Origin: Octopus vulgaris
Taxonomy: Eukaryota
Direction of reading: 5' to 3'
NCBI GenBank assembly: GCA_951406725.2
Contig: OX597815.1
Span: 111,042,001 to 111,106,000 of the forward strand
DNA length: 64,000 bases
The notes under the pieces were generated by a model. The model worked only from the letters and a program-made list of their open reading frames with translations. It was not told the origin of the DNA and did not search any database. The translations under genes and the position numbers were made by a program. Shown here in pieces: positions 3,168 through 49,703 of this stretch. Numbering within the stretch: position 1 is the first letter of the stretch; each line of letters starts with the position of its first letter.

Positions 3168-3847
3168 ATAAATAAAATATATGCATACATACATACATAT
3201 ATGTACGTACCTACATCTATATGTATATATACATGCATATATATATATATGTGAGTACAGGACACCACAAATAAACGTAGAGCACAACGAGAAACGAAAA
3301 CACAAAAACAAACTAGGAAACGGACTTTTTTTAACAACGAAAAAACAGAGTACAAGACAAACAATACAAGGAATATTCCCCTTCATCAACTGTCCCTGGT
3401 TCGACTCAATGCGTGTTTTGAAGGTAAGGACAGAACACGATTCGGTCGACGCAGTCCTTTCTGCAAAAGAATTAAATAAAATTATTTTGCAGAGGGGTAA
3501 AACAAAGAAAGAAAAAAATGTGACTTGTCACATTTTTTTTCTTTCCTTGTTTTACCCCTCTGCAAAAGAATTTTATTTAATTGTCACATTTTTTCTGTCC
3601 TTGTTTTACCCCTCTGCAAAAGAATTTTATTTAATTCTTTTGCAGGAAGGACTGTTTCGACCGGATCGTGTTCTGTCCTTACCTTCGAAACACGCATTGA
3701 GTCGAACCAGGGACAGCTGATGAAGGGGAATATTCCTTGTATTGTTTGTCTTGTACTCTCGTTTTTTCGTTGCTAAAAAAAGTCCGTTTCCTAGTTTTTA
3801 TGTTTTCGTTTCTCGTTGTGTTCTACGTTTATTTGTGGTATCCTGTA

Positions 3848-9929: not shown

Positions 9930-10164
9930 AAAGGGAATATAAGTCTGTATAAAATGCCAATACTAAATTTTCATTGTCTGCAAATATTTCATTCACATGA
10001 CAGATTCCAAAATCTAATCCTTCATAGATATAAAACTACAATCCAAGAATTGACCCCATACAGGATCATACGACTCTGATAAAAATAAACAAATGGCCTT
10101 TTAAAGATAGGAAGGATACGTTAGACAAGGCAGTTCAGTATAAAGTAAATATATTAAAGATGAG

Positions 10165-10518
10165 ATATTCTTTTCTTTTCTACTCTAGGCACAAGGCCCG
10201 AAATTTTTTGGGGAGGAGTACTTAATTTATCGAATCCTGAAAGGATGAAAGGCAAAGTCGACCTAGGCGGAATTTGAACACAGAACGTAAAGACAGACGA
10301 AATACCGCTATACATTTCGCCCGGCGTGCTAACGTTTCTTATTTCTTTATTGCCCACAAGGGGCTAAACATAGAGGAGACAAACAAGGACAGACAAAGGG
10401 ATCAAGTCGATTACATCAACCCCAGTGCGTAACTGGTACTTAATTTATCGACCCTGAAGGGATGAAAGGCAATGTCGACCTCGGCGGAATTTGAACTCAG
10501 AACGGCAGACGAAATACC
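10165..10518 (-). mobile_element. SINE family B nested array, downstream part (host 3' part 10165-10340 with tail 1; inserted unit 10341-10518 with tail 2)
   Basis: GAGTTCAAATTCC B-box; GCCTTTCATCCTT..GGGTCGATAAATTAAGTAC core; two distinct tails. Confidence 0.9.
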
Positions 10519-10757
10519 AATTTCTTTATTGTCCACCGGGGACCAAACATAGAAATGGACAGAACAACTGTTAGATCAGTAATGCGATATGATTTTACAT
10601 ATAATATGACTTTAAAAATTTAAATAAAATATAAAAAATCGAATGAAGTTAACAATACAGAGACAATACAAATGAAGCGATGATCAGCCACGCTCCGACC
10701 CCACAAGCCCCAATCTATCGCTGCTACCTTTTTTTCTTGTTGTTTTTTTCATCTTAT

Positions 10758-13665
10758 TCACATGGTTCCTTGCACGCACAGCACTCGTGCAACATGCTTC
10801 CATCTTTTTTTGAACACACTCTCCGACAGGCATCTCTTCTCCAGCCACACCTTCCTTTCCAAGTGAAAAGTGAAAAACAATCTTAACTTGTGGCCGGAGA
10901 TAAAATTATCCGTCTTAATCCCTTTCATCCTAGTCTTCCATACTGCCTCTTTCGCTATTGCAACAACAGTGAGAAAACAATTCCGGTGGGTCAATTTTAA
11001 CCGGTCCCTCTGTCCAGCTCCCAACAATGCTGTCTGAAAGCATCGACTTGCCAACCTATCCTCCCCACGCATCTTGGACAGGTCGGAGAGTGACCAAGGC
11101 ATCCCTAAAGCTCCCTTTAACGGCTTCCGAGAACAGATAAAGCGTTTTACACGTGGCACCTTGCCCTCCCACAAAAAGCGAAAGAGCTGCCTCTCCAACC
11201 TGATCACCCACGAAGCCGGACGGTCATGCGGTAGGTAATGACCGATGCAATAAACACATTGGCCACCTCCGCCCTCCTTTTCAGGGATAGCCACCGCCAA
11301 GACCAGGTCTTGACTATTGCAGCTACCTTTCTCGAATCCTCCGTCCAGTTCTTCTCTATCTGGAGGCATGGTCCAAACCAGACTCCCAGCAATTTAATCG
11401 GTCCCTCTGTCCAGCTCCCAACAACGCTGTCTGAAAGCATCGACTTGCCAACCCAGGTGCCGAGCTGCAAGCCGACCGACTTTTCCCGGTTGATTTTTGC
11501 TCCTGCCACCGTCTCGTAAACCTTAATAGCTTTACCCACTTCGCGTAGGCGTGCTACTGTGGTCACGCTGATAGTGATATCGTCCGCGTAAGCTGAAACT
11601 AACTCCTCTAAACCTGGTTTTCTCAGGATGTCACTCAACTTTCGCAGTAGGGGCTCAAGAGCCACCACATACAAAAGTAGTGAGAGCAGACATCCCTGAC
11701 GAACCGAGCGTCTGAGGCAGAACGGTTTCGAAAGGAAACCGTTCACCCGACCTATCGAGTCAATGTTGTGATACAGAGCGTTGAATCACATGAAGAAGCC
11801 AAGGCCCAGGCCAAACCGCGCAAGCACAGTCGCCAGGTATCGATAGTCGAACCTATCAAAAGCTTTAGATTGGTGTAAATGCACCAATGCCCTACCATTG
11901 CCAGAGTTATCACCAACACTCTCTATGGTATAGCGAATAAGAATGAGATTATACTGAATGGTTCTGCCTGGAGATTATACTGAATGGTTCTGCACATGTC
12001 TGTGCCTCCCTGACTGTACCATTCACGACACGCGCCAACCTTTTTGCTAAGACCTTGGCCAAAATCTTCACTTCTGCGTTTAACAGAGTGATGGGCCTGA
12101 AATTATCTAAAACGTCTCACTTGTCCGGGTCCTTTCTGATCAACATCCCCCTCCCCGGCGCACAGTTCTGGGGATAAACCCATTCTGTTACCAGTTCGCG
12201 TACACGCTAGCCAGCAGGTGCCCGAAAAAGTCTGGCATACATTTATATAGCTCGTAAAGAAGACCATCAAGTCCCGGCGACTTACTCACTTTACAGTCAG
12301 TCATAGCCTTCGTCACCTTCCCAGGCGTGATCGGCCCCTCGCAAGCCTCCTCATCCGACTCCGAGAGGCGTGGTAGCCCGACAAGAAAGTCCTCAAGGAC
12401 TACCCTATCACCCCTATCACCCCTATCAGGATCGCTGTCACCTCCGAACAGCTGGGCGAAGTACTCCCGAAATGCCTCACACATTTCCTCGAGTTCGTTT
12501 ACCAAGACACCGTTTTGGTTCGTCATATACCGAATAGTGGAACTATTTCCTTGTCGAGCTTCCACCACTCGGGCCCATCCAGCGGCCTTGATTCCTTCAC
12601 TCCCCATAGTACGTAACTTAGCTCTGATAATACTTTCCCTGTGTTGGGTTTCAAGACACTGGTTCAACTCCAGTCTCCTTACCTTCACTTGGTTCGCATT
12701 ACCAGACCTCAAGGCTTCTTCTAGCTCCTTAACTATACCATCTCTTATTCTACGCCCCTTCTTAGCTAAGCTTATGCTAAACCTAATAGACTTCTATTTT
12801 ATGGCTCCTTTTAGGGTGTACCTCCATTTATTATTAATGATGGTACCTGTCAATGCCCACTTAATTAACTCCTTGATCTGCTTTCTGCACACCTCAATCA
12901 CCAAAACGGACGTATTGAGTTTCCAGTAGCCAGATCCCTGTCTAAGTAACTTATCTACTGTCAGCTTCCAGGTAATCATGTTGTGATCATTGTAGCTGAC
13001 TAGATGAAACTGTGGACACTTAGCTATACACTTATCTGTTTTTACAATCAAAACCTTATCTATATATGTTCTTGAAGACTCGTCACTATTTGACCACATC
13101 CACTGTGGAGTGTTGGGATGTTCCAGCCTATATGGATCTGCCAGTTGAAAGTGACTTAGCAAATCCCGAAAGCCAGGGTTACATTTTCTATTCATATTCG
13201 AACCAACACAATCTCTGCGTGCGTCACAAATTGTGTTAAAGTCTCCTATCAATACTAGCGTATGCGACGTGGCCAGGAACTTGCCCAAGTCACGAAAATA
13301 TTCACTTTGCAGACCCATAACGATGGGTGCATAAATTGCAACCAGCCTGATTGTCTTGCCACAACTAAAAGTCAGGTTGAGAACGAACAGCCTGCCTTCT
13401 AGATCAGAAAAAAGCCAATCTTTTCTCGGTTACTCGGTTTCTTTTCAGTAGGATCAACAGCCCGCTCCCACCACCCGCCCGACTTGGAGAAACGTATTTC
13501 TCGTAGCCGTTCAGGGGGTGCAGATCTCTTGGCCCCTTCACCCGGGTTTCTGTTGCAACAATATCATTCAAATTTCTTGACCTGATGTCATTTAGGAAGC
13601 GCCCTTGCTTCCAACTCAACATCAGGCCACGAACATTTATACAACCAATGTGAATAGATGTGACT
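10758..13665 (-). pseudogene. Tx1-type ORF2 (APE-RT), multiple stops, frameshifts and a C-terminal deletion
   Basis: ORF fragments 13404-13622, 12794-13318, 12188-12712, 11204-11746 and 10758-11369 give consecutive L1/Tx1 ORF2 motifs. Confidence 0.9.
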
Positions 13666-13671
13666 TACCTT

Positions 13672-14395
13672 TTAGATCGGGGCGTCCTGTGGAGAGGGAC
13701 TCTCCACCGTTTCTTGACTTAGGGTCGAAAGTGGCAAGTCTTGAAATATAGATTGATGAAAATCAAATCTCAATGATGAGACTGATTTTCTATACGTGTT
13801 AAACAAGATATTATGTTTTTTGTCCAATTCGTAAAATTCAGTTTTTATATTTGTCTGATAGTTCAATTAGCCTAGTGGCTGATTTTTTTGTTTTTATATC
13901 ACGCACAAAGTCCTCGTTTTTGCTATTTAGTGCAACTATTCCTCTTTTCGTCTCACCCTCCGCTATCCTCGGTCTGTCTCTCTTTGCTGTTTTTTTTTTT
14001 TGGGGGGGGGGGGGTCTCGGCTTTCTCTGCTTTTGCTGGCTGGTGCCTTCCATTTTCCTTTTGTTTTTTTTTTCCTTCAGTTTCTCTCTCGCTTTCTTAC
14101 TCCTCACCGTCCGATTCTTCTTCACCTTCTTTACAATATTTTTAATGTGACTCAGTTGGCCACACTAGAAACATCGGGGCTTACGCCCATCAACAAAAGT
14201 ATTTTGAACCTCCCTCCCTACTTCTACTATTTCTGGGAGCTGTTCTAAAATTTTCTGCTCTGCCTGCAGTAACAGGTTGAACGTTTGTCCAGTCCAATAT
14301 GTATTCTCTGTGACGGTAACCTGCAGGAGGTTAATATTATCCTTCCTGTTTGCCAGGACTACCGCCATAGCTTTCGAGAGAAAACTATAATACAA
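13672..14395 (-). pseudogene. Tx1-type ORF1 remnant (gag-like zinc knuckle)
   Basis: DGRKPRCF*CGQLSHIK(KYC after a frameshift), followed by a Lys-rich region. Confidence 0.7.
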
Positions 14396-14494
14396 TTTTT
14401 AAACAATAAGTTCAACAATAGACAAAGCAAGAGGTATAACAGATATAACAATTAGAAACTTACTTTACGAACACACTCCAACAATAGATTTTCA

Positions 14495-14930
14495 GTAACA
14501 GACAGACGAAATACTTATTTCTTTACTACCCACAAGGGGCTAAACACAGAGGGGACAAACAAGAACAGACACACGGATTAAGTCAATTACATCAACCCCA
14601 GTGCATAACTGGTACTTAATTTATCGACCCCGAAAGGATGAAAGGCAAAGTTGACCTCGGCGGAATTTGAACTCTGAACGTAACGGCAGACGAAATACCT
14701 ATTTCTTTACTACCCACAAGGGGCTAAACACAGAGAGGACAAACAAGGACAGACAAACGGATTAAGTCAATTATATCGACCCCAGTGCGTAACTGGTACT
14801 TATTTAATCGCCCCCGAAAGGATGAAAGGCAAAGTCGACCTCTGCGGAATTTGAACTCAGAACGTAGCGACAGACGAAATACGGCTAAGCATTTCGCCCG
14901 GCGTGCTAACGTTTCTGCCAGCTCGCTGCC
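14495..14930 (-). mobile_element. SINE family B nested array, upstream part (head at 14930; tail-2 units 14701-14930 and 14517-14700)
   Basis: Head GGCAGCGAGCTGGCAGAAACGTTAGC...GAGTTCAAATTCC; ~184 bp repeat unit. Confidence 0.9.
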
Positions 14931-15029
14931 TTAAAGGACGAGATATTCATGCCAGGAATGCATTTGCTATTCAGTCTGAATTTCCATCTGATGTATATAT
15001 ACATCTGAGTTTCAATATATTCTTTTATT

Positions 15030-15461: not shown

Positions 15462-16355
15462 TATGTGGTCTGATCGATAAGTATCTGGACTGTTGCCATA
15501 GTAACGAAGCTAAAGCACACAGAGTAAAGTCGCCCGTCACAGATTGACCTTGACCACTATTGTGCATGCGCACTGAGTTTTAATTCTCTAGCCCACTTTC
15601 GCTGTTTGCAGTAGTACTTGGAAGGAAGGTGTGTTGCGTGTGATCGTCGCATTGACCATGACAGAAAGTTGAGCAGAGAACCCGCATCAAATTTTGCCAA
15701 AAGCTTGGTGATACCTGCTCAGAGGCCTACGTAAGGTTTTCAAAAAGTTCTCATTGTTCTCGACACAATCCAGATATTGTGCAACTGAAATCCGAATGTC
15801 TTTTTGGTCAGTTGAAAGCAGTTTTAGCACAAATTTGGCAGACACGCGTCTCATACCCATATCTTCAGTGATAATGCACTGAACTGAACCGTAACAAATC
15901 TGAACATCCTCTGATAACTCATGGATGGGGATTCGACGAATTCCCCTCACAGCTGCGAGCAGAACTGCGATGTTTTTCTCAGTTCTGATGGTTGCGGGTC
16001 TCCCAAAACGTTCATTAATATTGACATTTATGCGGCCATCATGGAATCATCTGAACCAATCGTGCACATGTGTGCGACTCATACACTTCTCTTCATAGAC
16101 TTTCTGCAACTTTGCATAGGTCTCAGAGCAAGTATCGCTTTGACAACTTTCTCTGTCATGGTCAATGCGACGATCACACTCTACACACCTTTCTTCCAAG
16201 CACTGCTGTAAACAGCTGAAGTGAGCTATAATGTTAAAACTTAATGCGCATGTACAACAACGTTCAAGGTCAGTCTGTGCCTTGCGGTTTTACTCTGCAT
16301 GCTTTAGTACTGTTACTATGACAACAGCCTGGATACTTATTCACCATACATTGTA
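15462..16355. mobile_element. Palindromic non-autonomous mariner derivative
   Basis: ~270 bp inverted arms starting and ending at TA; both arms carry the transposase start (EQRTRIKFCQKLG on +); minus strand continues ELSEDVQICYGSVQCIITEDMGMRRVSAKFVLKLL (HTH plus WVPHEL-like motif). Confidence 0.85.
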
Positions 16356-17815
16356 TAGTGCACTCTTATTTTGCGTAAATGATGCGAGTTTAAAATTGTT
16401 ATATAAAGATATAAGGTTGTATGCGAAACGGTGCTGTGGCAAGAGAAAATACAAAACATCTCGTAATTTCCTCGGAGGAATCATTTGTCTTTATAGTGAT
16501 GCACACACCGAACACTATTCGAAAAATATATAGAGATAGCATTTGGCTTTATTTGACGTTAAGCTGATAAAAGATAAAATTAAGTAGCAGGGTGCTACTT
16601 AATTTTATATACTGTGTCTGTATTGAAATGTAAAATAAATGAGAATAATATTTAAGCTTTTTTTAATCGATTCATGTCATACAAAATACAGCAATCATTT
16701 GTCCACACCCGCCATGTTTTCTGTTTTCTTTCATTGCTTTTTGTAGCACGCTCGTTGTGAAGAATTTCCGAACCGCTGGCTAAAGCATATTGCAGAATAG
16801 AATATTCAGTAAGAGTGATGATGAAAGGCAAAATTGATGTCACCGAGAATTGATCTCAGTACGCCATGAGTAGGAACAATTATTGCATGACATTTCTGTA
16901 ATGATCAAACAAATTTGGTAACCAGCTTTCTTATGCAAATAACTACTCTATCCATTCAATAAACAAACAAGCAAATTTCCTACAGGGCGTTTTTATTTCA
17001 CATCGCACCATCCAGTACTTCACTGGCATGTCCATTCTCCAAGCTTACGCATGAAACTGTTTTTGAATTTATTTGTGTGTTATCGTATTTCATAACTTCA
17101 AAATAATTTATATATTTTATATTTGGGACATCTTGAACAGAATCGGTCACTGTGAGTGATCAATATTTTGTTTGCTACAAGCAGGTGGCGAAATGTTAGA
17201 ATTGTTCGAGTGTCGGATAGAATACCTTGATGGGAGTAATACCTTTAATGTTGTATGTAGACTTGAGTTGCTTCGACATAGGCCATAAACTAAAGGACTA
17301 AAACTTGTTTCTGGTGTATGACATTGTTCATCACATAAGACAAATGATTGGAAGACAGGAAGAAACACCGGATTATCACGAGTGGAAAATCTTTATCATA
17401 GATCGTCTAGATCTAAGCTAAACTGAGAGTAAAGATTAGTTTTCTCTAATATTCTTCTCTTTCTCCTCGTTTCTCTCTCTCTGTTTCTCTCCCTCGCTCC
17501 GTTTTTCTTTCTCCTTCTCTGTTTCTCTCCCTTTCTCTCACCACACTATCACATGAAGTCTACTTTATAATGCGAAAGTAAACTACCCATCACATTTTGT
17601 AGTGGACTGCATTATAGATGACCATCATCATTGACTGAGACCAATGAGAGTACCAAAGAACGAACTATCAAATTTCCAGTTCCGCCCATTATTCTAGATA
17701 TCATTTTTATTGATATTATTATACCCAAATCATATCTTATCACAAACATAATTGTAACTAGTGTCGCAGCACTAATGCTAAATAAATGTTTAATGGAAAG
17801 CTGCTATCACTTGTT

Positions 17816-18602
17816 GGATCTTTTCGGTTTGAACGGCAGTTTTTTAAAATAATTTCTATGTAACTAAACACTTTTAAAATTCGTATACTGCTAGAATGTG
17901 TTTATAAAACATCTTTTTCTTTTGGCTTTCTTGAGGAAATTTTGTAGTTTGTAAGATATTTGTAAGATATTTTCTTCAATTTTGGTAATTTCAACCAATC
18001 AATGACGTCTATTGAGGTGAAAACATTATCTGTCGTAAAATTTTCTGGCGGTGAAATATGAAAATGTCCCTCGTTTAAGAAACAGATTGGGTTTATTTAC
18101 ATTTCTGAAGAAAAAAAGATACCCTTCCCCCACCCCTAACCCTAACCTAAACCCTAACACTAACGCTAACCCAACTCCTAACCCTAATTCTAACCCTAAC
18201 CCTAAAACAGATTGAAATGCAATAGATCGATACTAGGGTCATAATTATGGGTAGACACTAAAGAGGGAACGGTTTTGTTATCCAGCTCTGTTTACTAGTG
18301 ACCCCTCAGTTTATGGCCACAGGGTATCTTTTTTCTTATAAGAAACAGGGACATTTTCATATGACGCCGCCATAAAATGTTACGGCAGAAATCGTTTTCA
18401 CTTCAATAGACGTCATTGATTGGTTGAAATTGCCGAAATGCAAGAAATGAAAGACCAAATATCTTACAAACGATAGAATTTTCTCAAGAAAGCCAAGAGA
18501 AAAAGATGTTTTATAAACACATTCGTCCAGTATATGAAGTTTAAAATTTTTTAGTTACATAGAAATTATTTCTAAAAACTGCCGTTCAAACCGAAAAGAT
18601 CC
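17816..18602. mobile_element. Foldback/MITE-like DNA transposon with ~300 bp TIRs and internal (CCCTAA)n
   Basis: GGATCTTTTCGGTTTGAACGGCAG...CTGCCGTTCAAACCGAAAAGATCC; 8 bp TSD CACTTGTT/CACTTGTC. Confidence 0.9.
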
Positions 18603-20847
18603 CACTTGTCTCCTACATTCATGAAATAGTTGTATTTCGTATAACTTTTATAGTTTATCTTGAGTATGTTCATTCTTTATTAATATTTATCTTCTTATAA
18701 AACTCTAATTACAAAATGTGTTGGGTTTAATGTAAACAATACTTGAAATTATTTCAAGGCCCGTGTTATCGATTGAAATCGAACCCTTAATTTACTGTTC
18801 ACAATTCGGAGAAATTACAGATGATAGAGAGAACTGAATTCAGACCCTCATTTGTGTTCGAGGTTTTGAGAGTCTATGAGTCATAGCATTTATATATATC
18901 AGCTGTGTTGTTTGATTTTGTTTTAATTAGAATTTTTCTTTAGATTAAAAGTGACTACTACGCATCTAATTACCTTGCGTGAATTTAAAGAAAACTATTA
19001 ACGGTTTTGATACGAACTATAAAACGGATAATTAACTTGAACTTAATAAACTATATTTTAAAAATGAGAATTCTTTTCAAGCAAACTTAAATAATGCGCT
19101 AGTAAACTGTAATAGACCAGGCAATATTTCACTCTTTGTTTTCTGTAATTTCCAAATGTCTGTCACCAAATATTGTTTTGCTTTTGACAATGGAAATATA
19201 TGTTTCTAAAGAAAGTGAATAGAATCGTTAACTCGACATCTGCATATTAATAGTACTTAGCTTATTGATTTCATTGAGATGAAAAGTAATGTGTAAATTG
19301 ATGGTATGTGAAGTTAATGAAATGTGGCAATAAATAGTGTAGAATATTTAGTCTGTCTTTCAAATCACTATCGCAATTACATTACCGCAGTTCAATGAAA
19401 ATTCATACTAAATCTACTATTATTTCTTATGGTTACGCACGAGACTGATTACCATAGAAGGGTTAAAAGTGACTTAACAACTGAAATGTCAGTGTATCAT
19501 ATCATGTAATTAATGCTACACTCCATGAATGAAAAACGTATTTAAATTTCTTTAGATAAGCTTCTATAGTTGTAGAATGATATTTCATGTGGTACATCAA
19601 TGTTGTAAGCAACAAGTACATCTGACCAGTTATTTATCAGCTTGATCTGCGTAATCCAGCTTGTCGCTTGTACACAAGTTAGGGAAATCTTACTATCTAA
19701 TTAGATATTTCAAAAACCCCGTTGGAATTTACTATACACAGAAAGCATTTCAATCAGTGTTTCATAGATACAACTATTTTAATTCGTGTTTCCTCAGAAA
19801 ATACTAGATTCTTTTTATTAGGTATAAGTTTCTGTATTTTTAGTAGAACGAAATGGGGTGTTATTTGCATTCATGTCATTTCTATTGACTTTGATATTTC
19901 GACTCAGGTTAGCTTTGATTGAGTTGATTAATAAAAAGCCTTTTCACATAGACTATAGAGTTCCAGTTGTCACAGTGCTACCAGGGCCACGTTAGCCCAT
20001 GACATTTTTAAAAAGGATAGAATGAAATTTGAAAATGTGTACTGCTTACACAATTAGATCCATTGGCCACATAGATGAAATCTTGTCGTTTCTGAAAATA
20101 TAAATGCTGGTAGCATCGGTAAAGTTACGTCAACCACCTATCGGGATTCACGCTCTGGAAAACCACTTAACTAACTGAAATTTGTCTAAAGTAATCCCCA
20201 TATTAATTTACATTTTATTAGGTGCATGAATAATTTATGAATAGCCCAATTGATCTCAGGATTATACAATGCATGGAACTGATCTCAGAACTTTTACTCC
20301 ATTAATTATTTTCGATTCCAACAATAAACCGTTAATCATAATCGAAGATTTTGTCTATTTTTCAAAGTTGGCGGTAATATTGGACATACCTATTAAATTT
20401 GAATACTTTTATTTATAACCGTCAACATGTTTATTAATTTTGAATGTACTGAATTGGATTTCTTAAATATGAATATTATTTACTCGGAAGATGAACAATA
20501 ATAGTTTTCTGACATAGGGAAAAGGTCACATGTAAGGTTAATGATAATGGCTGAGATAAATTAATTTAATTAATGTCAGGACATGGATGCTACTCAAACT
20601 AATGGAATAAAAGTAAATACACTACTGATCTGGTCCCGCTGAAATTAAGAAGAATAACAGCATCAAAAGCACACTTATAATTACAGAAGTGAAAACAATA
20701 ATGTAAACAATAACAGTAGCAACAACAACAATAATACCTTCAGTACCGCCATCATCAACATCACCCCCACCTGCAGCACCATAGCCATCAACAACAGCAA
20801 CGACAACAACAACAGTAACAATATCAATCGCAATAATAGCAACAGAT

Positions 20848-23269: not shown

Positions 23270-23700
23270 GGCGGTGAGCTGGCAGAAACGTTAACAAGCT
23301 GGACGAAATGCTTTGCGGCATTTCGTCTATCTCTACGCTCTGAGTTCAAATTCCGCCGAGGTTGACTTTGCCTTTCATTCTTTCAGGGTTGATAAATTAA
23401 GTAGCAGTTACGCACTGGGATCGATCTAATCGGCTTAACCTCTTTGTCTGTCCTTGTTTGTCCCCTCTATGTTCAGCCCTTTGTGTGCAATAAAGAAATA
23501 AGAAACGTTAGCCGGGCGAAATACTTAACGGTATCTCGTCTCTCTACGTTCTGAGTTCAAATCCCGTCGAGGTCGCCTTTGCTTTTCATCCTTTCGGGGT
23601 CGATAAATTAAGTACCAGTTGCGCACTTGGGTCAATCTAATAGACTGGCCCTCTCTCCAAAATTTCGGGCTTTGTGCCTAGAGTAGAAAAGATCATTATT
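23270..23700 (+). mobile_element. SINE family B dimer (tail-2 unit to 23499, then re-entry at AGAAACGTTAGC and tail 1)
   Basis: Same nested architecture as 10165-14930. Confidence 0.9.
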
Positions 23701-24509: not shown

Positions 24510-25056
24510 AAATGAGGGTGAGAAATTTGACATTAATTTAATTAAGATCAATTTCACACCAGTGGTCTGGCATATTAAAAAACTGAAGGTTCAGTAAAAT
24601 TGTATTATATACATATGAGAGTGAAACCACTATGTGGATACCCTTATGCTAGAAGTAGATCCGCTATGGTGTTACCACTAAGAAATGTTCTCAAGAAAAA
24701 TTCAGCAAACAACCAAAACGTAATCGAGCAAGACAAAAGAGAGCAATAAATATATGTATTATTCACATACATGTTTCACTATTACCATATTACGTAATTT
24801 TACTTACGTAAGATGTCCGTAGATCTTCAGTGTGACCGTACAAGTGAATATAATTTGCAGAACTGTATACTGGGACATCCGCACAAAGTCAGACCTGTGA
24901 ATAATCTATATTTATATTGCTTTTCTTTTGTCTCGCTCGATTACGTTTTGGTTGTTTGCTGAATTTTTCTTAAGAACATTTCTTAGTGGTAAGACCATAG
25001 CGGATCTACTTTTAGCATAAGGGTATTCACCTAGTGGTTTCCTTCTGATATGTGTA
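24508..25056. mobile_element. pLTR-type inverted-repeat element in (TA)n
   Basis: Arms ~24609-24767 and ~24896-25056; hammerhead in the spacer. Confidence 0.75.
24763..24835 (-). ncRNA. Type I hammerhead ribozyme (minimal palindromic stem III)
   Basis: TCACA-CTGAAGA-tCTA...TAGt-GAAA-CATG-TA-TGTGA. Confidence 0.75.
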
Positions 25057-25070
25057 TATATATATATATA

Positions 25071-25771: not shown

Positions 25772-25818
<47 letters not shown>

Positions 25819-26002
25819 AACAAAGAAGTAAATATATGGCACAACGAAGTACCGATATTTACTAGAATTAGCGAACGTAATAATACGACGCTAATGTATA
25901 GCTTCACCGCGTATGTACTAGCAAAAATGCGTGTGTGCAACAAACTAGAAAAAATTGTCTTACCTCCAGGGAGAACATCTGAAAGATGAAATACCTGGAA
26001 AA

Positions 26003-26093
26003 GGATAATGTGGGACCTGCGCGGGTTTCAGATTTTTCAAGATATGTCTGCCACCCATAAACTTGATCTATCTTCATCAGCCAAACATATACC
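26003..26093 (-). ncRNA. Type I hammerhead ribozyme
   Basis: TGG-CTGATGA-AGAT...ATCT-GAAA-CCCGCGCAGG-TC-CCA. Confidence 0.7.
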
Positions 26094-26435
26094 ACGACAA
26101 CCTTTCAGATGTTACCACATTAATGCCATTACACTCGACTGAAACGCCGAAACGCTAACAGCACGAGAACGGTGAAGAAGTTTCAATAAATTAGTAATGC
26201 AATACTAGAGTATTGCTTTCCAGTAAAATATAGCCCGTAAGGGAAAAATATACAAAGAAGTAAATACATGGCACAACGAAGGACCGATATTTACTGGAAA
26301 TAGCGAACGTAATAATACGACGCTAATGTATAGCTTCACTGCGTATGTACTAGCAAAAAATGCGTGTGTGCAACAAACTAGAAAAAATTGTCTTACCTCC
26401 AGGGAGAACATCTGAAAGATGAAATACCTGGAAAA

Positions 26436-26526
26436 GGATAATGTGGGACCTGCGCAGGTTTCAGATTTTTCAAGATATGTCTGCCACTCATAAACTTGAT
26501 CTATCTTCATCAGCCAAACATATACC
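26436..26526 (-). ncRNA. Type I hammerhead ribozyme (second tandem copy)
   Basis: TGG-CTGATGA-AGAT...ATCT-GAA-ACCTGCGCAGGT-C-CCA; palindromic stem III; GUC cleavage site. Confidence 0.78.
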
Positions 26527-26803
26527 ACGACAACCTTTCAGATGTTACCACATTAATGCCATTACACTCGACTGAAACGCCGAAACGTTCTCCCTGGAGG
26601 TAAGACAATTTTTTCTAGTTTGTTGCACACACGCATTTTTGCTAGTACATACGCGGTGAAGCTATACATTAGCGTCGTATTATTACGTTCGCTATTTCCA
26701 GTAAATATCGGTACTTCGTTGTGCCATGTATTTACTTCTTTGTATATTTTCCCCGCACGGGCTATTCTTTACTGGAAAGCAATACTCTAGTATTGCATTA
26801 CCA

Positions 26804-26854
<51 letters not shown>

Positions 26855-29309: not shown

Positions 29310-29662
29310 AATATTCTTTGCTACTCCAGGCACAAGGCCCGAAATTGTTTGGGAGGGGTCCAGTCGATTAGAGTGACCCCAGCACGCGGGGCAATTTCGA
29401 CCTTAGCGGAATTTGAACTCAGATTAAATACCTATTTCTTTATTACCCACAAGGGGCTAAACTAGAGTGGACAAACAAGGACAGGCATAGGTATTAAGTC
29501 GATTACATCGACCCCAGTGCGTAACTGGTACTTATTTAATCGACCCTGAAAAGATGAAAAGCAAAGTTGACCTCGGCGGAATTTGAACTCAGAACGTAAC
29601 GGCAGACGAAATACCACTAAGCATTTCGCCCGGCGTGCTAACGTTTCTGCCAGCTCGCTGCC
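29310..29662 (-). mobile_element. SINE family B dimer (tail-2 unit inserted at GGTATTT of a tail-1 copy)
   Basis: Junction AAAGAAAT|AGGTATTT at 29433/29434. Confidence 0.88.
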
Positions 29663-30770
29663 TTAAAGCTATTACATATCTAACTACTTTTAGCTGGCAA
29701 TGCTGTACTTGATGAAGCGCGTTTGCAAATGAATATCAAGCGATTTCTTTCTCATCTCTGTCATGAAAACATTTCTCCTCATTTTCATTTCTACTGTGAA
29801 AGTAGTATATTACTGTCCAATGTATGTGATTAGAATTTATTTACAGATGTTTACTGCATGATTAAGAGAATAAATCACATCAAGTGGAAAATTGAGTCGA
29901 TTTAACCGACTCTTCAGAACGAAATAGGATTCTAATAAGTAGATATCTAATTTAAAATCCGAAAAAATATCTATAGTTTAAAGTCCAGTCACGTTTGTAA
30001 TAATACTTAGATAAATGTGAATGTATTAAGCATACACGATTTCCCACACACACATACACACACATATGTATAGTAGGATTATCTTTTTTATTTTTGTGTT
30101 TTGCACACCTATGTATGCATTACATATGCAATCATTTAAACAAAAATTCAATTATTTATATGTATTCCGTGTTGGCTCCACAAAATAATTTGATAGATGA
30201 AATATTATGCTAAAGCATTTCCTCGTTTTAAACATTTACGTTATTTGTCTTTTTTCTTGTTTTTGTTTGTTTTTCTTATTCTTATCAAAGAATGAATGCA
30301 GTTGTCAAATCGAAAATTTAAAGAGTTTTCCAATAACTATAATCTTAACATTTTATTTGTGAGGTTGTCAAATTAGTAGAATTAATGAAGTATTTATCTA
30401 AATACCTTTTTAAAATATACTCTTAAAACGAAACCCATCCACTACCAGTGCGTCATTATCTAATATTGTGGTGTCCACTCCATGTTCAATCTATTTGCGG
30501 TCTGAGAAAACAGTTTGAAGAATGTATTGTGGTCATTTAATTCAGTTATATGTTTCAAATAAAAACTGAAATTCAAACCTTCTGATTGTCAGACTACATT
30601 TCCCTTACAGTTGTTTGAAAATATTGAGCATGAAACCCACTCCTCTTTGAAGTTACAATTGCTTTCATCCCATAGAGGTCGAGAACATGAAGTAGCATTC
30701 GAGTGCCGCAGTCGATTTCGTCATTCCTTCTCCACAAATGGAATGTTAGGACTTACGCGTTTGCCATCGA

Positions 30771-31959: not shown

Positions 31960-32416
31960 ATAATACTTTCTATTATAGGCACAAAGCTTGAAGCTTTGAG
32001 GGAAGGAGTTAGTTGATTACATCGACCTCAGTGTTCAACAAGTATGTATGTCATTGACCTCGAAAGGATGAAAGACAAAGTTGACCTAAGCGGAATTTGA
32101 ACTCAAAACGTTAAGTCAGAAAAATGCCGCGGAATAGTTTGTCCGGTATATTAACGGTTCTGCCAACTCGCCACCTCAAAATTGTAACTAATAATCCTTT
32201 CTACTATAGGCAAAACGCCTGAAATCTTTTGGGAGGAGATAAATCGGTTAAATCGACCCCAGTGTATAACCGGTACTCATTCAATCGACGCCCCCTCCCC
32301 AAAGGGATTAAAGGCAAAAATCAACCTTAGCGGAATTTGAACTCCTAACGTAAAGACAGACGAAATGTTGCTAAGCATTTTATCCGGCGGGCTAACGATT
32401 CTGCTAGCTCGCCGCC
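31960..32416 (-). mobile_element. Two older head-to-tail SINE family B copies, both with tail 1
   Basis: Heads at ~32175 and ~32416; tails GTGCCTATAATAGAAAG and TTGCCTATAGTAGAAAG. Confidence 0.85.
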
Positions 32417-35069
32417 CTAAGATTATAGCAAATTATAATGACATTTTATAGTAATATTAGTTTTGTTATTGTAATCACTATTATAGCTTTAACAATGAAC
32501 GGGCGCCTTTGATGGCGCAAAGGATTTTATCACGCCTAAATGCTAGAAAAAAATTGTGCTTATTTTGTAAACAACATTTTGGACACTTCAGCTTCCGATG
32601 CATTTCCCTGAGGCGGAAGAATGAAATTGATTTTGTACAATGAATATATTGTTATAGTTTTAGAAAACATTACTTACCTGTGACATTGATGATTGTTTCG
32701 AGCGAAATAACATGATTACAACAAACACAGTAATAGGAAATACAGTTTTTCATAAAAAAGATGAAAAAGAGATTAGCAATAGATGTTAAAGAGACTAATA
32801 TTATAACACAAATATTAATGATTTGACAAGCACAAATGATAAAAGAAAATGAAGTAAAAAAGTATTTTTAACAACGAAGACAACACCAATGTATCTTTTG
32901 CCGTTCTGAGAGGGAAGCGCTGAGCAACAGTTAGCTTCTGGGAAAAGTGCCTGGGAGAGCATATTGTAAAAGACTGTCTCCTTACTCGTGCAAAGAGAAA
33001 AATAACAACTTCCTCATAAAAAGGAGCCAGCTTCCACATGAGTACTAAGTCGCGGGACCCTAGGCCTAAGTATGCATTTATATATTCTTCATCAGCAGGG
33101 CAAAGTAAATGGAAGTGCAAGCCAGGATTTTAAGTTTTAGGCTCAGATGACAAAGACAATAAAAACTGGTTGCCGCCGCACATAAAAACAATAATTGGAA
33201 AGAAGAAACAAGTATTATGTCCAAAAACATTTGTAAAGACTCTGAATCATAATTATTTGTCACATTTACAGCTCACTACAAACAAGTCGTGAGCGTGGAG
33301 AGATACGTAGAATTATGTTGTAGGTTTAAGTTTACATAAACAGACACGATACGTATTACCACTAAAGAATAAGAATAGTAAATAATAAATAATAATAAAT
33401 AAACTGATGCAGCAAACCTGCAAAATTTGTCAAAAGAAGAGACTAAGAAATTTACTAAGAATATTATGATATTTTATTTCGTGATTAACCACAATGAACC
33501 TTTTCATAGATATGGACAGAAGAGAGAAAAACAACATACATGTGTTACGAGAGTTTCACCTCCCGTGATAAAGTACAGAGAAACCGACAAGAAAGAAGGT
33601 GACATACCTCTATATTACCAAAGATGGTGAGGTATTCATTGTGCTCGCCAAACTCTAGAGTTACTAGAGCTAGCTCTGGATGTCGTGTGAAGCAGTAGCA
33701 TATTCATCAGCCTAAGGAGAGACTACGGGATGGTTTGTATAGTTTCCAAAATTGAGTAGAAGACACAGAGGTAGGTAGTGCTGGTACGTTGCACAAAGTG
33801 TATCTGTAAAAGATGTTAACCCTTACTATCCATCATCTTTCCTGAAATGTAAGGCACTCGATAACTCCCAAATTACTACCAAGTTGTATATGTGGACACT
33901 GAGGTTCAGCATGAACATGTAAATTTATATAACTCCACAAGACTAAAGCACCATTTTGGATCTATCACCGTTATTGACTTAAGGAAAAACAAAACATTGA
34001 GACAGCCAGTGTAGGGAAAGAAGTTCAGCTGTGAGATTTGAACAGCTAGAAGCCTTTATACTCAAAAGAAGTCAGAGAAAAGATTAGCAGAACGGGGGAA
34101 AGAACAAAAGCGGGCCACATAAACTACTAGTTTTACGGCACAGCCTGTTGCAGTTTCAGAAACAGTGGATTAGTACACATTGTTCTTAGTTTGAAGTGCA
34201 GGCGAACAAGAAGGCGACACGAAAATGACCAGAAAGTCAATCGACGACCAGGAAACTAATCATCTGACAATTATTATGGCAAAGACTAAGAGGCCTTTTC
34301 ACTTGCACCATTCACCCACTGTTTTGTTACAATGAAGAAGAAAGTGACGGAATCGGCCAAAAAGGAAGGTAGAAAGGAAATAAATGAATACAACAAGAAA
34401 CAAGCTAGCAAACCCAGAAAGCGAAGCCTGCTCCCACTGAGAGTCTTAAATTCCAGTTGCAGTGGAAGTGCAACGATTGTCTACTCAACTTATTCGATAA
34501 CTGAGTAAATAATAAACTCGTGAAGTTGATGATTGAACCAGATATGTGGAACTAGTGTCAGAACCTCCTACTCTGAAAGTATAAACCATATATAAAGAAA
34601 AAGTTGACACTCTATGAACATTTCTAATGTTATATAGTGGAGGATGTAATGCTCACCACAGGCTGGTTGACTGAAAAATGTCAACAATGTTTGGAAGTAA
34701 CCGGCTTTAATAATGAGCAATCAAGTAGTTTCATGAAACCTAGAGAGTAATTAGGCACCTGTAGCAGAACGCTTAAGTAAATGTCATAAAATTAAAATCC
34801 CACTGAAAACAATCTTCGGGTTCACAAGCTAAGGGTATATGCAATAGGTACAATAGTTTTCTCCTCTCCAGATATGCTTACTTCACTATATACGTATTAC
34901 CTTCTGCAGTATCGTACAAACTAAAATACGTTTCTTATTGCTGTTTAATCAGACTCAGCTTGATCGACTAGACTTTTGAATAAGGGCGTCAAATCTAGAC
35001 TAATCCGGGATTTTATAGGTGCATATATATCTTTTTTAAAATTAAAACTGCAATAAAGTAGGATCTATT

Positions 35070-49258: not shown

Positions 49259-49703
49259 TAACACTTAGCAGCTTTTCTCCCGTCAGTAGTTTCTGAGTTC
49301 AAATTCCGCAGCGGCTGTTTTCAACCGCTGCGGAATTTGAAATCAGAACCTACTTACACGTTAATAGATTGAAGGATAAACAGTACCGAACTCAAATTGC
49401 TTTTTTTAAATTCTGACTTAATTTTCCTAATTTATGAATTGTGTGCTAATATTTAATGTTTCTTTTCGCAAAACATGGAATTACACAGAATATGGGATTT
49501 GACTATACAAGTGCAAAGGAATATACATTTTCATAGGGCTTTGAACTTCGAACTCTTTCTTAGTTTTCAGTGATGACTGCAACCTCCCCTCTTTTCTTAT
49601 CTAACGAAAGCACTAATAAAGAATTATCCAAAATTCTGACTGCCTCTTTTTTCTCAATATACAATATCTGAACACCACGTCAAACACTACAAACGCAAAC
49701 ACA

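Follow-up and report, generated by a model that had tools for sequence, protein, structure and literature searches.

An L1/Tx1-group LINE and a SINE with a LINE-group tail at one site of the SINE head in Octopus vulgaris

In a stretch of 64,000 nucleotides (nt) from Octopus vulgaris (GCA_951406725.2, contig OX597815.1, positions 111,042,001 to 111,106,000 of the forward strand), hereafter the window, a long interspersed element (LINE) that we call Tx1a lies inside a block of short interspersed elements (SINEs), and the end of the LINE, as well as the end of every SINE that carries one particular tail (tail 2, or T2), is followed at once by the head of another SINE. This raises the question of whether the elements prefer a fixed site in that head, and whether the SINE inserts into itself, as the initial annotation of the window had proposed. 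Our analysis covered the genome of 2.8 Gb in 227 contigs, within which the window lies. The observation in the window is confirmed, and the earlier interpretation is partly supported: for the LINE the pattern is real, holds across the genome and is well controlled, for the SINE it is real but partial, and the mechanism is what we infer from it. As the best account, which we hold to be probable, Tx1a picks one site in the octopod SINE head, the tail-2 SINE rides the same machinery into older SINEs, itself included, and the arrays then grow locally.

Two sites have to be distinguished. Site A lies some 50 nt into the SINE head, immediately in front of GTATTTCGTCTG, and has the presumed A and B boxes on either side; exact ends at this site were scored by the following GTATTT. 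Site B is AGAAACGTTAGC, about 15 nt into the head. The chance of an end falling at site A is approximately 0.09% per end. In the window, the tail-2 ends at 10341, 14517, 14701 and 29434 on the minus strand and 23499 on the plus strand, together with the LINE end at 10519, have the head directly after them at one of these two sites, and the match of 28 of 33 positions between the LINE 3' end and SINE tail 2 is exact on recount. As for the two fixed insertion points, site A holds for both LINE and SINE, while site B turned out to be minor and to carry none of the LINE ends sampled. Besides T2, the tail classes of the SINE are named T1a, T1b and T3.

Site choice and host SINEs of Tx1a

Using the LINE sequence alone as query, we obtained 53 distinct Tx1a 3' ends (duplicates merged and three SINE look-alikes dropped; part of the set came from scoring the best 40 of 2,204 candidates), and 50 of them are at site A, which bears out the proposal that the LINE uses an abundant SINE head as its target. 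Of the remaining ends, that of L053 joins the head at position 25 with its tail lost, apparently through a deletion between short matches, and those of L063 and L091 lie off target, at sites that have only G/GA-TAT in common with site A. Genome-wide, GTATTT comes next after 71 of 89 exact matches to the Tx1a tail. The sister families Tx1b and Tx1c, located from a 71%-identical copy in L104, have a near-identical tail, and none of their 40 ends is at the SINE head; at site B no LINE end was found, neither among the 53 of Tx1a nor among the 40 of Tx1b and Tx1c. With 50 of 53 ends in one repeat, and with duplications, Tx1a counts as target-specific where more than 20% of flanks in one repeat are called so (PMC4494074).

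The host SINEs do not descend together with the LINE. At the Tx1a ends their tails are T2 in 28 cases, T1a in 13, T1b in three, T3 in two and unclassified in five, as read by a motif-based classifier with some errors. Moreover, copies of the young lineage Tx1a2 differ from each other by a median of 1.1% in the LINE and 7.9% in the adjoining SINE, and the SINE distance is the larger one in 105 of 119 pairs. With at least three tail classes and a SINE divergence above that of the LINE, the hosts are independent and older. The other side of the insertions tells the same: exact 5' junctions of the older lineage Tx1a1 lie behind SINE sequence or a LINE end in 21 of 21 (seven heads, 13 T2 ends and one LINE end), and those of Tx1a2 lie behind a SINE head in 35 of 35, three of which are tandem duplicates; since the junction patterns contain the duplicated motif, 5' ends without it are uncounted. 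Full-length copies among 20 long loci begin behind a SINE head or a T2 end in five of five. The insertion duplications measure 12-20 nt, with matching private variants on both sides in L050 and L112; the truncated copy in L050, for example, has a 20-nt duplication with identical private changes either side. The LINE in L228, 5.3 kb long, interrupts a complete SINE that has a 14-nt duplication of its own, and host SINE duplications also surround L068, L070, L079 and L094.

Two further observations concern these 5' ends. At G000:C5:116144287-116144319 a Tx1a1 5' end stands immediately after another Tx1a tail, which is a tandem LINE insertion at a recreated site. T2 ends precede 13 of 21 Tx1a1 5' ends, compared with 10 T2 junctions among 81 site-A positions in a random sample; one explanation is a later SINE insertion into the upstream duplication.

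By its domains, Tx1a fits the L1/Tx1 group of non-LTR elements. The second open reading frame (ORF2) of a young copy, L225, matches Exo_endo_phos (E 9e-7), RVT_1 (E 8e-30) and zf-RVT (E 2e-7), and the reverse transcriptase (RT) has human L1 ORF2p as the best solved-structure match (E 1e-51, versus E 4e-21 for R2, L1 and R2 alone being returned). In ORF1 a CCHC knuckle is found in L226 and L225 (zf-CCHC, E 6e-5 and 4e-5), and the domain search gave no Transposase_22 in ORF1 of these two copies; by the ORF1 type, a placement in the Tx1 clade would fit, with which a CCHC-type ORF1 is consistent (PMC5203782). Protein homologues that carry an organism name are hypothetical proteins of Argonauta, an octopod. 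Both L225 and L226 are young Tx1a2 copies with long open frames (839 amino acids within ORF2 in L225, an ORF1 of 379 amino acids in L226) and a 5' untranslated region (UTR) unlike that of Tx1a1.

The two lineages differ in the base beside their ends. Tx1a1 ends read ATT-G-GTATTT, and a G stands before the site in 19 of 21 5' junctions; Tx1a2 ends read ATT-C-GTATTT, with CC in 35 of 35 5' junctions and exactly GCGTAGCC in 30. This GCGTAGCC allele of the head occurs in 16 of 63 random heads and, by hand count, in about 36 among the first 100 of 39,657 exact heads, as well as in 46 of 115 T2 SINEs and in none of 44 intact tail-1/3 SINEs. When 11 Tx1a2 loci were compared on both sides, the outer heads were mutually different. 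Two Tx1a2 loci with tail-1 hosts still carry GCGTAGCC, and the base at +13 is unequal between the 5' and 3' copies in seven of 10 comparable loci; both facts favour target-like sequence on the LINE RNA, joined by homology, as the probable source of the allele match, and an allele-specific endonuclease is a possible alternative cause. A resistance of GCGTAGCC heads to insertion was also considered and is ruled out for Tx1a2, which sits behind them.

The tail-2 SINE and the tail it shares

The SINE is presumably of the same family as OR1/OR2, with which it would share an octopod host, a tRNA-like head, a shared body and alternative tails. Genome-wide there are 86,814 exact T2 ends, and GTATTT comes next in 33,870, a few of these being free copies whose target begins alike; exact matches to site B, counted with a different and shorter pattern, number 2,033. 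In a random sample of 400 kb at fixed genome positions, which gave 46 T2 ends with flank and 25 tail-1 ends, 11 T2 ends were at site A (nine scored automatically, two by eye) and three at site B, while of the tail-1 ends one came near site A and none fell exactly on it (Fisher p 0.013 for the contrast with T2). The enrichment that had been expected after both kinds of end is strong for Tx1a, and for tail 2 the two sites together take 14 of 46 ends.

Some of these insertions left a second head. Double-headed matches number 102 genome-wide. In most of the 30 inspected, a full T2 copy stands between two copies of site A: ahead of it lies a host head or T2 end and then GTATTTCGTCTG with a few more bases, and site A recurs behind it. 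Others of the 30 are short head repeats or, in L156, L164 and L173, free insertions that carry an additional partial head. Since double heads make up only a small part of the junctions, most joins are seamless. In the three free insertions just named the target duplication encloses the extra partial head, which suggests double-headed copies as sources or a template jump of the RT. The idea that the SINE inserts into its own head hence holds in so far as full-length tail-2 copies lie at site A with a duplication, though arrays also grow by duplication or conversion. Free T2 monomers with duplications of 10-19 nt make up 21 of 38, as against two of 280 mismatched controls, and their duplications often start with GGT, GTA or GAT like site A. 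In an enriched sample the ACA type of T2, the older-looking of the two, goes with site B and with AT-rich sites, and the GTG type with site A and free sites starting with AGGT.

The 3' end of about 45 nt is common to the T2 SINE, Tx1a, Tx1b and Tx1c. The proposal that the SINE captured a Tx1 tail therefore stands as to the LINE group, whereas the donor family is left ambiguous by three families with the same tail. The T2 copies at site A point to the Tx1a machinery, and free T2 copies may come from any of the three families. The small predicted hairpin of the tail is weakly supported: 91% of cells are paired, with nine of 500 shuffles as high and one pair changed on both sides (eight hand-picked rows). 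Tx1c is a small family (L104:5323-5387, L185, L207, L220, L224) with AT-rich, unrelated insertion sites and with the 3' end that is closest to the GTA/GTG SINE tail, and it is a candidate partner of the free-standing T2 copies. As for Tx1b, about 12 of 40 3' ends precede one repeat starting with GGATGTAGAGGG, 85-98% alike over 90-300 nt (L190, L195, L197, L199-L203, L205, L206, L216, L223), and most other Tx1b flanks start with GGATG; this repeat, for which Rfam gave no match in two loci, is a candidate second target preference or a co-moved flank.

Several observations of other kinds touch the same SINE. Tandem arrays of a head segment of 64-69 nt, from the start to the site-A duplication, reach up to eight units (G000:C10:17996024-17996502; C13:69036079-69036320; L160/L161, L175). 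A new full-length SINE in the same direction follows a tail-1 end within 30 nt in four of 25 cases (scored automatically; also L152, L139, L144, L125 and window 32005-32420), which is a separate clustering at ATT-rich tails. Contigs of runs X2, X3 and X18, under two organism labels, show over L228:5969 many T2 ends followed by GGTATTTCGTCTG, so that this junction is not peculiar to the present assembly. The SINE head was not recognised as tRNA-like by either of two programs: ARAGORN predicts no tRNA anywhere in the window, and the Rfam hits in four loci were microsatellite noise with no tRNA among them.

The block and its neighbours in the window

The block runs from 10154 to 14948 on the minus strand, and one outer target-site duplication of 17-18 nt encloses all of it (upstream copy 14931-14948, downstream copy 10154-10170), as would be expected if one original tail-1 SINE took in the remaining units. 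Within it, 14700-14930 holds a full SINE head with A-box-like and B-box-like motifs, recognized by eye, a CORE-like body and tail 2 of the GTG subfamily; a second tail-2 unit of 184 nt follows at 14516-14699 and begins at site A. The LINE comes next, between two copies of GTATTTCGTCTG, as the initial annotation had seen: the 5' copy at 14503-14514, a junction type that is also found in the 21 exact Tx1a1 5' ends, and the 3' copy at 10506-10517, which is site A of the host unit. Behind the 3' copy, the rest of the tail-2 unit that the LINE split (ACA subfamily) occupies 10340-10518, and the rest of the original tail-1a SINE resumes at site B in 10171-10339. The two adjacent GTG-type units are 7.8% different with no common private variant, and the third unit is of the other subfamily; this supports units that are independent of each other, and the earlier reading of one tail-1 SINE that received three tail-2 units and a LINE agrees with this.

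The LINE itself (10519-14502, minus strand) is a dead and internally deleted Tx1a1 copy that keeps remnants of the 5' UTR and ORF1 as well as the 3' UTR with the shared tail. It carries deletions relative to other copies and its frames are broken: an RT fragment lies at 11207-11785 (Pfam RVT_1, E 1.5e-11) and a fragment of the apurinic/apyrimidinic endonuclease (APE) at 12797-13429 (Exo_endo_phos, E 6e-5, below cutoff), both on the minus strand, where the 3' tail common to SINE tail 2, with its small predicted hairpin, covers 10519-10563.

Elsewhere in the window, a tail-2 SINE is joined at site B to a tail-1a remainder (23270-23695, plus strand), and at 29314-29663 on the minus strand another meets, at site A, a tail-1a remainder that is older and internally deleted. 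Two SINE head fragments stand in a short inverted arrangement at 49264-49352. An open reading frame at 15687-16046 on the minus strand looks, by eye, like a mariner-type transposase fragment. Long inverted repeats at 3340-3766, 17813-18605, 24606-25058 and 25816-26809, of 135-259 nt and 86-98% complementary, look like ends of miniature inverted-repeat transposable elements or DNA transposons.

Mechanism, rival explanations and known systems

From these patterns a course of events can be proposed. Tx1a, as an APE-type LINE of the L1/Tx1 group, selects one site in the SINE head and leaves a duplication of about 12 nt, as the sequences show, and it would do so by nicking that site. A SINE lineage with the tail of this LINE group would be copied in trans by the same reverse transcriptases, which would explain why a minority of tail-2 copies, roughly a quarter to a third, fall at site A of older SINEs, copies of their own family included. 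The complementary DNA (cDNA) of the SINE would pair with the target overhang, and because it is homologous to the target its 5' end would mostly join without a seam. In this way the host head would be fused to a new body and the headless host remainder pushed downstream, giving units of 184 nt, with the rare double-headed insertions as the non-homologous outcome. Every insertion would recreate the site and, judged by structure, restore a working RNA polymerase III (Pol III) head; free-standing T2 copies would come from off-target insertion or from the sister LINE families. A further step is put forward tentatively, as we lean against it somewhat: LINE and SINE may be a self-feeding, co-evolving pair, in which the LINE amplifies its own landing SINE, insertions rebuild a promoter-bearing SINE together with the site, the head changed from GCTTAGCG to GCGTAGCC in tail-2 SINEs only, and the younger LINE tracks the new allele through a changed endonuclease or target-like pairing RNA ends.

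Several results weigh against this account. The SINE tail is about equally close to the three LINE families; the tail hairpin has one compensated pair class, and its folding z-scores range from -1.5 to +0.6. In the random sample 32 of 46 T2 ends are at neither site (five of them from one tandem tail repeat), and the absence of free-standing tail-2 copies that had been reported is hence true inside the window but fails genome-wide, where about two thirds of them stand free. Over L228, other SINE copies overwhelmed the reads and contigs of four runs, none of which spans the site, so that an empty allele was not demonstrated; and the head-allele bias in seamless arrays is not significant in a small sample (22:8 versus 34:29, p 0.11). 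In 15 of 20 long Tx1a1 loci, the DNA sampled has no SINE head at the apparent 5' boundary, and no duplication ties this boundary to the downstream SINE in any of these 15; later insertions or deletions are the likely cause. The headless boundaries would suit a 3' transduction, in which the LINE carries the SINE remainder along from a master copy and the association is inherited rather than targeted, and tail 2 could itself prime reverse transcription. Against such a transduction, a duplication linking the 5' boundary to the SINE end is absent in 15 of 15 loci, and full-length LINE copies are flanked by host heads and host duplications; with downstream tails of at least three classes and SINE parts about seven times more diverged than LINE parts, it is ruled out for practical purposes and we give it next to no weight.

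A further difficulty lies in the arrays. In 201 units from all loci sampled, a rare non-CpG variant is shared by 21 of 51 adjacent T2 pairs, as against 196 of 5,111 random same-type pairs, the share being 8 of 27 for first pairs and 13 of 24 for internal ones; the shared variants mean that local duplication or conversion adds units, and that junction counts overstate insertion events. Arrays of 6-10 units with a spacing of 184-187 nt fit tandem duplication too, and SINE-derived satellites are known in reptiles (PMC10702118). One may therefore suppose that the LINE is site-specific but that the SINE arrays arose mostly by tandem duplication of DNA or from one mobile dimer, with self-insertion rare. 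We regard this as improbable: 30 of 51 adjacent pairs share no private variant, double-headed insertions with duplications exist, the array breakpoint is the same nucleotide as the LINE insertion, and joins of tail 2 to tail 1 are impossible by duplicating one unit. A single tail-2/tail-1 composite master was rejected, as 18 T2 units upstream of tail-1 units do not cluster, being no nearer to each other (0.101) than to other units (0.097); the check for shared mutations that the initial annotation had called for thus went against it in the adjacent pairs and in its favour on the moving composite. Insertion would seed the arrays; that they lengthen further by local duplication or conversion is shown for about 40% of neighbouring pairs.

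What directs the LINE is a different matter. It is possible, although we doubt it, that mainly RNA-DNA pairing, instead of a specific endonuclease, drives the targeting: transcripts would read through into host GGUAUUUCG, and their end would anneal at nicks in matching DNA, much as read-through assists R1/SART elements. The base beside the LINE end, G in Tx1a1 and C in Tx1a2, tracks the lineage as such pairing would have it, and the two tail-1-hosted loci with an allele absent from intact tail-1/3 SINEs and the mismatch at +13 speak for it as well; the AAGAAA end of the ACA subfamily also fits site B, where no LINE end was found. On the other hand, a precision of about 94% to the single nucleotide, and off-target sites sharing just G/GA-TAT, are the behaviour of sequence-specific APE in known Tx1 families. 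Pairing would still require a nick, and pairing and endonuclease can act jointly.

Targeting of the SINE head by Tx1a, with the tail-2 SINE as passenger, would add the SINE head as a new target class for site-specific LINEs, one that is amplified by the LINE group itself, unlike in known cases. It gives one of the commonest octopus repeats a candidate partner, and would account for dimers and arrays, in the tens of thousands, that repeat annotation would break up into spurious families. Moreover, a young lineage with about 1% pairwise distance and long open frames, together with two target alleles, makes endonuclease versus RNA-target pairing testable, for which the sister families with the same tail but other targets are natural controls.

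Our literature search, in which Repbase and Dfam entries and the supplements of PMC4494074 lay outside, returned from the accessible texts no account in which a LINE has the SINE head as its target or a SINE targets itself. L1-Tx1 families are listed in an Octopus repeat annotation of 2026 (PMC13282606), and the word 'target' is absent from its accessible text. OR1/OR2 are CORE-SINEs of octopus with a tRNA-derived head (PMC4824008 and PMC4758252, citing Ohshima and Okada 1994), for which the accessible parts of the two citing papers mention no partner LINE or insertion preference. SINE-derived satellites and multimers (PMC10702118), as far as that text is accessible, are alike in having tandem units that start inside the head and are partially homogenised; they are ascribed to DNA-level duplication, whereas in octopus the unit boundary is the LINE site and the tail classes are mixed. 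Maize ZmSINE2/3 likewise have a shared 3' end of about 45 nt, which there has a hairpin, and only three SINEs with L1-clade tails are counted in the review (PMC3747384), where the accessible text reports no target specificity for such pairs, unlike the octopus one. Among APE-type LINEs with a fixed multicopy target, Xenopus Tx1 inserts into Tx1D, Keno into U2 small nuclear RNA genes and Kibi/Koshi into microsatellites (PMC4494074); Tx1a resembles them in this, but no SINE is among the targets listed in the accessible text, nor is a LINE-amplified target described there. The closest system is the crocodilian Tx1-Mar/SINEU (Kojima 2015, PMC4494074). As far as its accessible text goes, there too the site that a Tx1 group prefers lies in another transposon, SINEs show the same preference at 13-90%, and tandem SINE insertions enclose the target duplication. 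The differences are that the target there is a Mariner DNA transposon and here a SINE head, and that SINEU is poly(A)-ended, with no LINE found to have the 3' end of SINEU-1, whereas the octopus SINE shares the tail of its LINE group; only in the octopus pair are target and passenger one family.

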